The notes under the pieces: generated by a model
Told to the model about the DNA's origin: nothing
Databases searched by the model: none
The model's input: only the letters and a program-made list of their open reading frames with translations
Translations under genes and position numbers: made by a program
IMG/VR virus record: IMGVR_UViG_3300015615_000196
Location: 224,001-288,000 of that record
DNA length: 64,000 nucleotides
Direction: 5' to 3' (one strand)
Source of the DNA: a virus
Taxonomy: Duplodnaviria; Caudoviricetes
In this document: positions 1,432 to 51,957 of the stretch, piece by piece
Numbering within the stretch: the stretch's first letter is position 1
How the letters are laid out: each line of letters opens with the position of its first letter

Positions 1432-1803
1432 ATGAAAAAGAAGAAAATCATGGAAATTCTCGATTCCAATGAGGTAATCATTGGGTCTGATGATAAACCG
1501 CAGGTTGATCCTAATGCCCCTGCGCAAGCTGCTGGTACTACTGATCGTAATGCGAAAATGGGACACCAGCCGTTTGATGATAAATTTTGGGGTACGTTCG
1601 GATTCAGTCTGTACGAAGAACTGACGGAAGATCAGATGCTTCAAATTGCAGAAGATATTATCGCCAAGCGTACCGATAAGTCAATCAAACCAAAAAAAGA
1701 GGACAAGTCAGAAATAGTAAACAAGGTTGAAAGAATCAAGGAATTGTTTGCTGATTTGTCGGATACCGAAAAGGGTGATCTGATCAGCAAGTTAAAGAAG
1801 TAA
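1432..1803 (+). CDS. hypothetical late protein
   Basis: ATG 4 nt after TATTTAT (1421-1427); internal LYEELTE motif. Confidence 0.65.
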   Translation: MKKKKIMEILDSNEVIIGSDDKPQVDPNAPAQAAGTTDRNAKMGHQPFDDKFWGTFGFSLYEELTEDQMLQIAEDIIAKRTDKSIKPKKEDKSEIVNKVERIKELFADLSDTEKGDLISKLKK

Positions 1804-2618
1804 TGAATAGTCAATTATACGGTGAAGGAAGGCATTACAACATTCCGCGAGACATACTGGTCAGAATCCAATCAAAACTTTTCTCCAATCAAAGTGGAGG
1901 TAGTGAAGGAGCAAAGAGAGCCAAGAATCTTGTGAAGATGGGTTATTGCACATACCCAATGCTCAAGAGACTCAAGAATTTTTTCGACTACTGTGATCCC
2001 AAAGCACAGGCAGGACAATTTGAACTGGCAGGAGGTGAGCCAATGCGTCAATTCGTAGAGCGCACACTTCAATCAGAAAGAGCCAGAACAAACAACAACA
2101 ATCAAACCAACGTTGTATCAATGCCACCTTCGGCATTCGATCCAACATTGAATCTAAGCAAGACTCCGAGAATGAACGTGAACGAATCGGAGGTCAAAGG
2201 AAAGAAACCTCGTGGTGCTGTGGCAGTAATCGTCAACGAAGACGGTAAGGTGCTCATTGTAAAACGTTCTCCCAAAGGTGGCTGGATGCCCGGTAAACAC
2301 GCTTTAGTCGGAGGGGGAATAGAACAAGGGGAAGAACCAATTGATGCAGCCAAACGCGAAGTAATGGAGGAAACGGGGCTTAAATTGGAGCATTTCGTAG
2401 ACTCGTTCAACATCCTGACTCCCCCTGAAACTGTAGACTATGCATTCGTGGCAAAAGCCCCGGAAAAGTGTGATGTTGTCTTAAATGACGAGCATACTGA
2501 ACACGGATGGTACGGACTTGATGAAATTGAGAAGCTGGATGGCGTTCCGATGCTCAAGGACTGTGTCGAACTGGCACTAAATAAAATGAAGGAAAAGGGT
2601 ATTTATGGAAAGCGTTAG
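1803..2618 (+). CDS. NUDIX hydrolase with N-terminal unknown domain
   Basis: Nudix box GGGIEQGEEPIDAAKREVMEETGL; VNE motif at the domain junction. Confidence 0.9.
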   Translation: MNSQLYGEGRHYNIPRDILVRIQSKLFSNQSGGSEGAKRAKNLVKMGYCTYPMLKRLKNFFDYCDPKAQAGQFELAGGEPMRQFVERTLQSERARTNNNNQTNVVSMPPSAFDPTLNLSKTPRMNVNESEVKGKKPRGAVAVIVNEDGKVLIVKRSPKGGWMPGKHALVGGGIEQGEEPIDAAKREVMEETGLKLEHFVDSFNILTPPETVDYAFVAKAPEKCDVVLNDEHTEHGWYGLDEIEKLDGVPMLKDCVELALNKMKEKGIYGKR

Positions 2619-49800: not shown

Positions 49801-51957
49801 GGAGAATTGAAGAATCCAAGTCCGGCAGTTGCTAAAGCAGCTAAGTCAATGAGTGACAAGGATGCGGAAGATTTTGCATCAACCAAGCACAAAGGTCTAC
49901 CGAACCATGTGAAGAAAAAGAAGAAAAAAGTGGATGAAGGTTTATTCACTCCATCACAAGAATTGAATATTGATCAAATCAGATCGGTAATCGATAACTT
50001 CAAACAATCTCCTGAGTCATCAGATTTGAGAGACAAGTTCGTAAAGGCAAAAGACTACGTTAAGTCAAAGGCCGGACACGTTGCAAGAATGCCACAGTTG
50101 AAAATGTGGTTAGACCAGAATATGCCACAGCTTTCAAACTATGTAGGCATGTTATGGGGCAATTGGGACTTGATGCCATCGAACTCAGGAATGTTACAAG
50201 AAAATAAAGGAACAATGAAAATAGACGAAAAAGCATACAAGGACTTCTTCAAGTCAGAATTGAAGAAGACTGGTAAGTCACTCGGTTCAATGAGTGCAGG
50301 TGAAAAGAAAGTACTCTTTGAACAAGTAGACAAAGGCTTCAAGAAGTTGAATGAAAGCATTATCGATGATCAGCCGGATTCTATGGTTAACAATCAAGAA
50401 TCATCAATGGCAAAGAGCATGGATTCAGACGAACTCAATAAAGATGGTATGCCAGCAGCTTCTTCGTCAGCACCATCATCATCTGAACCACAGCCGAATG
50501 GCGTTAGTGGTGTAAGTGAAATCACTGAGGTATCGGAAGAAGAACCACAGTACTTTCATTCAGGTGCTGATGACCCACAAGTAGCATTGGATGCTGCTAA
50601 GTTCAGAGAAATGTTGAAGACCAAGTACGGTGTTGAAAGTGTGTCACAATTGTCACCAGCACAACGTCATGAGTTAATGAAGAGCATGAACTTTGGTGGT
50701 GAAAAGCCAGCAGATCAGATTGCTCAAGCACAACATAAGACTGACGATGATAGAGCAGCATATGCAAAGTTAAATGATCCTACTGAGGCATTGGCTTTTT
50801 TGAATCAGCGTGTAGACTCAATGGAAACACCAGAAGACTACAAGCGTGTAGCAAGCGAATTTAAGCAAGCTACTGGAAAGAGCATGTTACATCCGATGGC
50901 TATTTATGGTGTAATCCAGAACATGTCACCGGAGGAAAGACAGAATTACAATAAACTCGAACAATATTTCAGATTGAATATGAGCGATAAACAAACCGTA
51001 AACGAAGAAAGAAAAGTCCCTGCTATTCTTAATGTTGAAAAACTTGGAGCAGAGAATGCGAAGAATTTCGCTAAAGATAACGCAGAGGAAGATGCACTTA
51101 AACAGGACAAGACCTATCCAAAAGATGATGGTATCCACAAGGCTCCGGTATGGCCTGATCCTAAGACGTTCTACATTGAACAAGGAAAAGGAACTTCTCA
51201 AGAATTAGCAAAGGAACAAACCAAAGAAGCTAAGTCAATGGCTGACATTGAAGCAGAAGTTCTTGCAAAGACCAAAGGTGCATTGGAGAACATTGGCAAT
51301 TCAACTGCCGATGGCAAGCATATTCCGAAGAGAAATCTTACCAAAGAAGAAGGTTACGAACTTGCTATGAACAGAGGTGATGGTATGCAAGATATTGTGT
51401 ACGATTTGAAGCCGTCTGAGAAGTTCGAAGATCGCATGAAGAAAGACATGGGAGATCATGTTTACAAGAGCAGACAAGACAAAATGGACTACAAAGCAGA
51501 GGCTCCGATGTACAACAAGGATACCCAACCTGTTGAAGATGGTGATGACAAGAACCAGTACAACAAATTTGCAAAGGGATATAACCTTCACGAAGTAAGT
51601 GCAAGATACAAGGATGATTTGGGTAAAGGACACCTTGTTGAATTCAAACTTGGCGAAGTTGAAGAGGTTACTACCATTGCAGACAACTATGTAAAGTTGA
51701 GCATCGATGGTATGGGTAACAAGTACTCTATCGCAGGTAAGAAAATGAACGAGAACAAAGGCTTCAATGAAATGATGGAGAAGTATAGCTTCTTCATGAA
51801 CGAAAATAAGATTGTTGCTATCGAGAAGTCGAAAGTGATTGTTGAGACCAAGATTCCAGTGAAGGGCAACGTCAATGAATCATTGCAAAAAATGAAGCAC
51901 TTGATGAACTATAAGCCTACTGATTATGTTGATACAAAGAAGTCAGTAAAGTTTTAA
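46870..51957 (+). CDS. 1695-aa modular acidic polyprotein (probable internal head protein) containing a DUF3008-like module
   Basis: More than 20 hydrophobic-x-E motifs; ASSKSQQRFMGMVHAAQKGE...AKSM..KDAEDFASTKHKGLP is DUF3008-like. Confidence 0.7.
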   Translation: MEGSFNSKNIKPSLTTPTKMGKQLDSNFKSQIRKSGMKLSENGMLHEKEESLKKKIFKLDKMETLVHTDENLSKVFNEMKQDAAEKFGYHWNETILNIIFNDYVLNSPKNLQKYKNTRAKPKKRRGEEGIKELQNDIDKEKAASSGAEERKEKLMGGDDKEKVDEFFNFGKSAATELPMNQRSKNDTYFVDMRNKKLLAPVPYNASQEAKQAIISKYVGQPNIKQLAWYDAVKQGIKGVPTEVPDGSIQQIDQELQQRYGNDLQTIPALGENLGQPVTSAFTLAKIIAGLLPDQYTQKDFNTALENYFVDHGMDFAKLNNQEYVQDISHFLASDFGKTQMDETTGAAGAGAFAPALDNQKPVTEEKTANYVGEDEWSRKVYRSEDGTMYVDVDGVLHSVTPEGEPIAPVSGVQIVDSIKETTTSASSGQYSGPAIWAKNPNKSRWAHRPAWHGGKILESVVDKRNDYLTEAGAFKKYLINNMLFEAVNMGMMEAESFQDHAKRIKAVLDKYLADTPEIANADGFKDAYEFSKYEAETGKAHPNRGKGNVDQEVNEHHLHSKQEKIDFILQYTYDDASDSATHSTEELNAMSDGEIENLYRSTEKKIGLDEFFSFGKKDQPVANNQELSIGQLSGYKNNIINVLRNLKFGEQMIDALNKTYDQIVIKGLKNGVPADVLAQKIAAHYSGQQVSLPEQDDTNFRETMVKDLKYNGKPASDSESTEELESQDGLFKGKWNSNTSVAENDEEMDVVEERPRPQDDDCFVSSNGFKLSASCGDKYIGEFTEDEAAWEAVRNWKKENNYYPNTWFISDHGNESLVDDDGNEIKEGFGGDPEVGEDQYKEEQDYNRFAALEQQSKELAQLRDAGDEGALKAKIDSLQVIPMINHSGGYEDGLGHRDLEKLGYTRITHDYSFDEDGEFVINNISNKPIVMIDERGIRGIINPGESDIDENTSIRLHEKASSKSQQRFMGMVHAAQKGELKNPSPAVAKAAKSMSDKDAEDFASTKHKGLPNHVKKKKKKVDEGLFTPSQELNIDQIRSVIDNFKQSPESSDLRDKFVKAKDYVKSKAGHVARMPQLKMWLDQNMPQLSNYVGMLWGNWDLMPSNSGMLQENKGTMKIDEKAYKDFFKSELKKTGKSLGSMSAGEKKVLFEQVDKGFKKLNESIIDDQPDSMVNNQESSMAKSMDSDELNKDGMPAASSSAPSSSEPQPNGVSGVSEITEVSEEEPQYFHSGADDPQVALDAAKFREMLKTKYGVESVSQLSPAQRHELMKSMNFGGEKPADQIAQAQHKTDDDRAAYAKLNDPTEALAFLNQRVDSMETPEDYKRVASEFKQATGKSMLHPMAIYGVIQNMSPEERQNYNKLEQYFRLNMSDKQTVNEERKVPAILNVEKLGAENAKNFAKDNAEEDALKQDKTYPKDDGIHKAPVWPDPKTFYIEQGKGTSQELAKEQTKEAKSMADIEAEVLAKTKGALENIGNSTADGKHIPKRNLTKEEGYELAMNRGDGMQDIVYDLKPSEKFEDRMKKDMGDHVYKSRQDKMDYKAEAPMYNKDTQPVEDGDDKNQYNKFAKGYNLHEVSARYKDDLGKGHLVEFKLGEVEEVTTIADNYVKLSIDGMGNKYSIAGKKMNENKGFNEMMEKYSFFMNENKIVAIEKSKVIVETKIPVKGNVNESLQKMKHLMNYKPTDYVDTKKSVKF

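Follow-up and report, generated by a model that had tools for sequence, protein, structure and literature searches.

A 64-kb stretch of DNA (the window; 64,000 nucleotides, positions 224,001 to 288,000 of IMG/VR record IMGVR_UViG_3300015615_000196), contained in a 362.6-kb contig of an uncultured T4-like phage, encodes two long, putatively late proteins of 987 and 1695 amino acids (aa), in which exchangeable modules are bounded by a hydrophobic-x-Glu motif, [VLIM]-x-E. The cleavage rule of the T4 prohead protease is L/I-X-E (PMC9026906). We consider it probable that these proteins enter the core of the prohead, that the gp21-type S77 protease of the phage cuts them at the module junctions, and that the folded pieces are retained in the head and ejected. 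The genome carries the gene of such a protease, the motif occurs in its expected substrates, the modules are shuffled among homologs and the motif is under selection at the junctions. The comparison set consisted of eight rebuilt relatives of 299-365 kb, which together with the source genome are the nine genomes referred to below.

The 987-aa protein comprises two kinase-like modules, a small Cys/basic module, an ART-like module and a CCA-adding enzyme (Table 1). The kinase fold was matched by a profile search of the PDB (1e-6), and the kinase-like modules retain the Lys, the Glu, the catalytic Asp/Asn and a DFG-like Asp. The nucleotidyltransferase module can be placed by its sequence in the class II, CCA-adding type, with a Pfam match to the CCA/PolyA_pol domain (2e-22), head and neck motifs and a match to the solved enzyme 1MIV (9e-30). 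The ART identity of the fourth module is only a lead, as the best hit of a structure search had a Z of 2.9, the ART-fold rows were weak (Z 2.0-2.4) and the Atlas leads scored 0.85-0.87 with template-modelling (TM) scores of 0.42-0.48. Homologs of up to 2688 aa contain the modules in other orders, together with a third kinase, GNAT, ART-PolyVal and 2H/Acb1-like domains.

The position of the motif across homologs, and not its count, is decisive. Linkers were defined as the stretches between cores delimited by hidden Markov models, and in the 987-aa family 164 of the 165 distinct inter-module linkers contain [VLIM]-x-E, where 2000 composition-matched within-linker shuffles gave 99 on average and 117 at most, which bears out the enrichment at linkers implied by an earlier, first-pass annotation of the window. 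All 32 junction types are positive, and the control motifs Phi-x-D and Phi-x-K are scarcer in linkers than in cores. Alignment breakpoints determined without regard to the motif in the nine genomes fall on it 2.29-fold more often than expected, in the 987-aa and 1695-aa families alike, whereas tail/baseplate mosaics have a ratio of 0.93 and replication proteins one of 0.81. The 47-aa module is immediately preceded by the motif in 63 of 66 homologs. Of 40 homologs, 37 have a Glu 24-26 residues ahead of the CCA anchor, and it is found in 23 of 24 unrelated upstream contexts. The motif Glu is constant while P3 alternates between I, L, V and M and P2 is free (23/24, 14/14 and 16/18 unrelated upstream contexts). 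An origin of the junctions from a DNA repeat was ruled out, as the codons vary and no common DNA repeat is present.

In the free Geobacillus CCA enzyme the anchor starts at residue 25, and a cut at the Glu would therefore give the natural N-terminus of the enzyme. Some relatives (G001, G009 and G016) encode the CCA module in a gene of its own, with or without upstream modules. Distant homologs (P0144, P0148, P0161 and similar) carry tandem kinase-2 repeats and other modules, and as the motif is kept in 28 of their 29 linkers, the design reaches beyond the clade. The motifs might alternatively be leftovers of the fusion of leader-bearing internal-protein genes, or structural caps, in proteins that stay whole as polyvalent effectors. 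Gene fusion and fission are indeed frequent in the clade, the residues after the Glu are often conserved module starts, and the virion RNA polymerase of phage N4 is packaged without processing (PMC5512222). However, the motif outlasts the turnover of P3 and P2 across genomes of 25-40% guanine plus cytosine (GC) and ahead of unrelated folds, and it adjoins, without entering, the fold of the free CCA enzyme, so that we regard this explanation as very unlikely.

The first-pass annotation had left the protease to be sought elsewhere in the genome, and a Peptidase_S77 gene of the gp21 type (Pfam 4e-21) is indeed present at genome positions 124641-125375, upstream of the scaffold and Gp23 capsid genes. 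Its His, Ser and Asp motifs, whose catalytic roles are presumed by analogy, are kept in 75 relatives. The capsid protein carries [IL]-N-E at residues 59-61, with N60 and E61 invariant in 34 sequences; this is close to the length of the T4 gp23 pro-peptide, 65 residues (PMC9026906). A narrower motif, [VLIM]-[NKTS]-E, is enriched 2- to 2.6-fold in the scaffold, in the protease and in a 270-aa protein that probably belongs to the core. The observed/expected ratio of the scaffold is 2.0-3.6, and that of two neighbouring non-core proteins about 1.0. When 105 conserved families were ranked by motif excess, the first five were the scaffold (whose own top rank is circular, as the narrow motif was derived from it) and the 1695-aa, 773-aa, protease and 987-aa families, followed by the 262-aa, 178-aa, 270-aa, WYL, glycosyltransferase and capsid families. 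The 1695-aa, 987-aa, 262-aa and WYL proteins thus rank among the scaffold, protease, core and capsid proteins. The third-ranking 773-aa product is an acidic late protein (genome 110815-113136) and probably a core protein. Near the head genes, a TATTTAT-led 402-aa gene (genome 107786-108994) has a nucleotidyltransferase domain after ILSE and is a cargo candidate.

The 1695-aa protein has an N-domain and a C-domain common to 120 homologs, between which modules have been gained, lost and reordered, and the alignment ends among these homologs coincide with the hydrophobic-x-E motifs bounding the modules. A profile of the 12-residue scaffold C-terminus gave 27.3 bits with the C-terminus of the 1695-aa protein, the best non-scaffold match of 4500 proteins (reversed-sequence maximum, 15.4 bits), and it scores near the C-terminus in 108 of the 120 homologs. 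Two 250-aa genes, at genome positions 141334-142113 (-) and 178811-179566 (+), begin with the same motif and are candidate head-core genes. The N-terminus of the 1695-aa protein is a conserved 134-aa domain and not a capsid targeting sequence of about 10 residues. No enzyme domain was found in this protein, DUF3008 being the sole recognisable domain. The Atlas search of its C-domain returned unnamed clusters only, all below 0.8, and our literature search, with most subscription journals outside its scope, found no relevant paper on DUF3008.

The same DUF3008 domain is a free-standing 69-aa protein, ORF93, in cyanophage S-SCSM1, where it is annotated as 'virion protein'. The S-SCSM1 study reports 45 virion proteins detected by mass spectrometry (PMC9602691) and gives the best match of ORF93 as hypothetical; the label therefore probably derives from the mass spectra. 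Met1 of ORF93 aligns with the motif Glu ahead of DUF3008 in the 1695-aa protein. Judged from these alignments, a cut would leave both DUF3008 and the CCA enzyme starting where their free-standing homologs start. Several modules of the 1695-aa protein open with look-alike peptides after the Glu, namely FF-x-FGK twice (window 47356 and 48691) and runs of small residues rich in TT (window 47887 and 48121), hinting at duplicated starts.

Because of its scaffold-type tail, the virion-labelled homolog of DUF3008 and the lack of enzyme domains, the 1695-aa protein looks like a head-core or small-cargo polyprotein rather than the chain of enzymes that the first-pass annotation had seen in it. It might then be cut in the prohead and yet be disposable core filler like T4 gp22, gp67 and gp68, most fragments leaving the head undelivered, an explanation that is most plausible for the 1695-aa and 262-aa proteins. 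The scaffold-type tail, the acidic composition, the many sites, the fragments of 20-160 aa and the lack of enzyme matches would all fit, and T4 core proteins are cut to multiple fragments that mostly leave the head (PMC9026906). On the other hand, the modules are kept as units and shuffled, DUF3008 exists as a separate virion-labelled protein, and the intact kinase and CCA motifs of the 987-aa protein would be left unexplained. As an account of the whole system, disposable core is unlikely.

Motif counts per protein, made in the source genome alone against shuffled sequence, are uninformative in themselves and cannot carry the claim. An excess was found for the 1695-aa protein (43 motifs, where the first-pass annotation had given more than 20; 29 expected, p 0.004) and the 262-aa protein (13 vs 5.5, p 0.001). 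The counts were not significant for the 987-aa protein (22 vs 18.7), NUDIX (6 vs 5.4), WYL (2 vs 2.7) and ParB/ART (6 vs 4.5). TATTTAT-led genes show no enrichment of the N-terminal motif (residues 1-25; 0.19 vs 0.18), and a stricter T4-leader pattern is enriched across the nine genomes, yet occurs in none of the 40 TATTTAT-led genes of the source genome.

A number of points weigh against the proposed processing. The DNA polymerase also has an excess of motifs (33 vs 23, p 0.013), in line with the caution of the first-pass annotation that short Glu motifs are frequent by chance in acidic proteins. Single conserved sites next to variable flanks are seen in DNA polymerase and SbcCD too, and Phi-x-K yields as many of them (24 vs 24). 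[VLIM]-x-E occurs inside folded cores as well, at 0.021 per residue; the core limits of the linker test were chosen by the analyst, and the homologs are related, so that their counts overstate independence. The idea that late genes as a class carry the motif had to be given up, TATTTAT-led genes showing no enrichment (p 0.08 and 0.80). No leader, scaffold-tail motif or capsid-targeting signal was found in the 987-aa family. A related-locus search with the 987-aa protein gave no matches, and neither did a tblastn search of cultured phages with its N-terminal 602 aa, by which the kinase modules are absent from cultured relatives. All of the cuts measured in SPN3US take off terminal propeptides, and 42 head proteins of that phage remain uncut (PMC10052503). 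Finally, the steps established for the polyprotein system are genomic and statistical only. The SbcCD control, an 1100-aa gene at window 56536-59838 (-) present in 8/8 relatives, looks by its sequence like a fused SbcD-SbcC (Mre11-Rad50) nuclease.

Chance alone, short Glu motifs being common in acidic, helical proteins, would agree with the flat source-genome counts of the 987-aa, NUDIX, WYL and ParB/ART proteins and the raised count of DNA polymerase, and it may explain any individual single-site gene. For the 987-aa and 1695-aa families it is refuted by the linker shuffles, the breakpoints, the control motifs and the control protein sets, and as a general explanation it is extremely improbable. 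Another possibility is that the cut sites are real but that the enzyme polyproteins act unpackaged in the cytoplasm late in infection, for example in CCA addition to phage tRNAs. This would agree with the lack of a detected targeting signal in the 987-aa protein, with the 61 tRNA genes found by ARAGORN in the whole genome and with the separate CCA gene of some relatives, which is without TATTTAT. Against it, gp21-type proteases are described as acting on assembled proheads (PMC5694885), and phage ART, NUDIX and 2H domains are often predicted to be head-packaged (PMC9503650); we hold it to be quite unlikely.

According to the processing that we favour, the long late proteins, whose exchangeable modules all have [ILVM]-x-E at their boundaries, would be incorporated into the prohead core, where the S77 protease would cut after the exposed Glu at the junctions, as it would for scaffold and capsid. 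From the 987-aa chain, two kinases would thereby be released as separate products, along with the 47-aa peptide, the ART-like domain and the CCA-adding enzyme, and from the 1695-aa protein, which would enter the core through its scaffold-type tail, many small proteins like the T4 internal proteins. The folded pieces would be retained in the head and ejected with the DNA into the next host, where they might repair the ends of tRNAs and modify targets in the host. The late timing of expression and the packaging, cutting, ejection and targets of the pieces are inferred. We are evenly balanced on a wider proposal, that in this clade of jumbo phages the capsid maturation protease is a general polyprotein processor, with one anchor loading a variable kit of injected effectors (kinases, ART, 2H/Acb1-like, GNAT and CCA enzyme) from cassette genes that freely gain and lose modules flanked by cut motifs. 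If the processing is as we propose, the motif would allow the injected proteome of uncultured jumbo phages to be read from sequence by rule, and their giant hypothetical proteins could be divided into units open to testing, among which new anti-defence enzymes are likely to be found. The separate ideas of T4 internal-protein processing and of polyvalent proteins would also be united, and virus-style polyprotein processing would exist in a tailed phage.

The reading frames and motifs quoted in the first-pass annotation are all present, including those of the 987-aa protein, VNE in the NUDIX gene, LKE in the WYL gene and LTE in the ParB/ART gene. As one system, the span from 1432 to 51957 holds for some genes only, many unrelated genes without signal lying inside it. 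The domain names NUDIX (Pfam 5e-19), CCA, kinase, ParB and ART/RES stand, whereas WYL is below the Pfam cut-off (1.4e-3) and the ART-like assignment in the 987-aa protein is weak. The NUDIX inter-domain motif, which adjoins indels, is found in 9/9 genomes and 29/29 anchored homologs. The short leader of the WYL protein closes with [LI]-[KNT]-E in 11/11 of the loci listed and in 9/9 genomes, and in relatives its sequence resembles the capsid-targeting propeptide of T4. The ParB/ART protein combines a ParB/Srx N-domain (residues 30-124; Z 9.1, 91 aligned, root-mean-square deviation (rmsd) 3.2) with an ART/RES-like C-domain (residues 144-265; moderate Z of 6.5, 95 aligned, rmsd 3.3), and at the fold junction L132 is kept in 50/60 and E134 in 53/60 sequences, the middle residue being free. 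A weak lead links the C-domain to the cyanophage A4 pre-ejectosome domain (rank 12; Z 5.0, 102 aligned, rmsd 4.3). These three proteins have one conserved site each and are not multi-module chains. As DNA polymerase and SbcCD show like sites and Phi-x-K as many, they are only plausible cut substrates, and the evidence for each individually is modest.

Homologs of the 123-aa, NUDIX, WYL, 987-aa, ParB/ART and 1695-aa genes occur in 8/8 relatives, and of the 262-aa gene in 7/8. The repeated contig ends are consistent with a circular assembly, and the T4-type genes for portal, terminase, S77 protease and Gp23 capsid are found at 113-129 kb of the genome. Among uncultured viral contigs, relatives whose capsid proteins are 70-91% identical occur commonly, and the best cultured matches are about 40% identical over partial length only. 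The GC content is 40.5% in the source genome and 25-35% in the eight relatives. Shine-Dalgarno motifs were not found in the whole genome, which fits a Bacteroidota host. TATTTAT occurs 117 times in the genome, mostly as GTATTTAT, and since it precedes each of the portal, terminase, protease and scaffold genes, it can fairly be taken from its placement as a putative late promoter; the literature search found no relevant paper on TATTTAT in this role. The motif lies immediately 5' of the 123-aa, 987-aa, ParB/ART and 71-aa genes. The placement of the motif-bearing genes downstream of TATTTAT, proposed in the first-pass annotation, is therefore direct for 987-aa and ParB/ART, whereas NUDIX, WYL and 1695-aa are downstream operon members with no TATTTAT directly in front.

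Table 1. Genes, modules and motifs of the proposed system in the window
Feature	Position	Strand	Remarks
TATTTAT, putative late promoter of 123-aa/NUDIX operon	1421..1427	+	motif
123-aa acidic protein	1432..1803	+	8/8 relatives; several conserved hydrophobic-x-E sites
N-domain + NUDIX hydrolase	1803..2618	+	one candidate cut site at domain boundary
VNE preceding NUDIX domain	2178..2186	+	
TATTTAT within NUDIX gene end	2600..2606	+	motif; nearest one upstream of 86-aa/WYL/262-aa genes
WYL-domain protein	3062..3721	+	short N-terminal leader closing with LKE (3140-3148)
262-aa motif-rich protein, probable head-core protein	3723..4511	+	family rank 6/105
TATTTAT ahead of 987-aa gene	4514..4520	+	motif
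987-aa polyprotein	4527..7490	+	kinase 1, kinase 2, small Cys/basic module, ART-like, CCA-adding enzyme
Kinase-like module 1	4527..5171	+	closes with VNE 5163-5171; LDE 5178-5186 next
Kinase-like module 2	5187..5831	+	closes with VNE 5823-5831
47-aa conserved module, KKKC core	5832..5972	+	8/8 relatives; closes with ISE at 5964
ART-like module	6021..6332	+	weak fold assignment; flanked by VEE (6012) and IAE (6324)
Class II tRNA nucleotidyltransferase (CCA-adding type, by sequence)	6333..7487	+	start = Met1 position of free bacterial enzyme
TATTTAT ahead of ParB/ART gene	7499..7505	+	motif
ParB/Srx-fold + ART/RES-fold protein (265-aa)	7510..8307	+	conserved L-x-E (7903-7911) at domain junction
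TATTTAT at head of 71-aa + 1695-aa operon	46638..46644	+	motif
71-aa conserved gene	46655..46870	+	overlaps 1695-aa gene start
1695-aa mosaic	46870..51957	+	fixed N-domain (~1-134) and C-domain (1380-1695); shuffled 20-160-aa modules between
DUF3008 module	49744..49938	+	after LHE; 65% identical to 69-aa S-SCSM1 ORF93
VNE, then 12-residue helix motif	51871..51912	+	common to scaffold C-terminus

Among known systems, head maturation in T4 (gp21, IPI-III and Alt) is alike in its S77 protease gene beside those of the scaffold and a gp23-type capsid, in its L/I-x-E rule and in having ART and small proteins as cargo (PMC9026906, PMC5694885). T4 cargo, however, is encoded as one protein per gene and loses terminal propeptides, Alt being cut at both ends (ITE-6 and LTE-619; PMC5694885), whereas here the sites lie between shuffled modules of one chain and P3 may also be V or M. 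T4 internal proteins have a leader; the 987-aa protein begins inside a kinase module, without a T4-like capsid targeting sequence, which would occupy about 10 residues at the N-terminus and close with the cut site. The T4 core proteins gp22, gp67 and gp68 share with the 1695-aa protein the many sites and the predicted cutting to fragments. The latter has no Pfam or PHROG match to them, shares the 12-residue tail motif with the scaffold of its own clade and has as its middle part a variable cassette of conserved small modules. In T4 and SPN3US only core proteins are cut throughout, cargo losing terminal propeptides (PMC9026906, PMC5694885, PMC10052503). The gp175 protease of phiKZ and gp245 of SPN3US are likewise Glu-specific and cut many ejection proteins, but their motif is small-residue-x-E and the cuts remove terminal propeptides (PMC10052503), and the phage described here is T4-like.

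The S-SCSM1 homolog of the DUF3008 module, the virion-labelled ORF93, is a free-standing gene and not part of a polyprotein, as is its neighbour ORF91 (NMNAT; L241:3215-4444). The virion-detected ORF91 product opens with a T4-like capsid-targeting leader closing in L-K-E, and ORF93 closes with a peptide similar to this leader. The polyvalent proteins of Iyer et al. 2017 (PMC5512222) are also multi-enzyme chains with ART, GNAT, kinase, nucleotidyltransferase and ParB domains and are predicted to be virion-borne. The 987-aa family belongs with them in having 2-15 effector domains in shuffled orders, and its homologs match ART-PolyVal. The processing of polyvalent proteins was ascribed to built-in zincin metallopeptidases (PMC5512222), a common but not universal theme, for which no Pfam match was found in the 987-aa protein or six homologs; the junctions here carry instead the motif of a prohead protease acting in trans. 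The literature search brought up no description of prohead-protease sites lying between the modules of enzyme chains. The architecture is a variant of both T4 internal-protein processing and polyvalent proteins.

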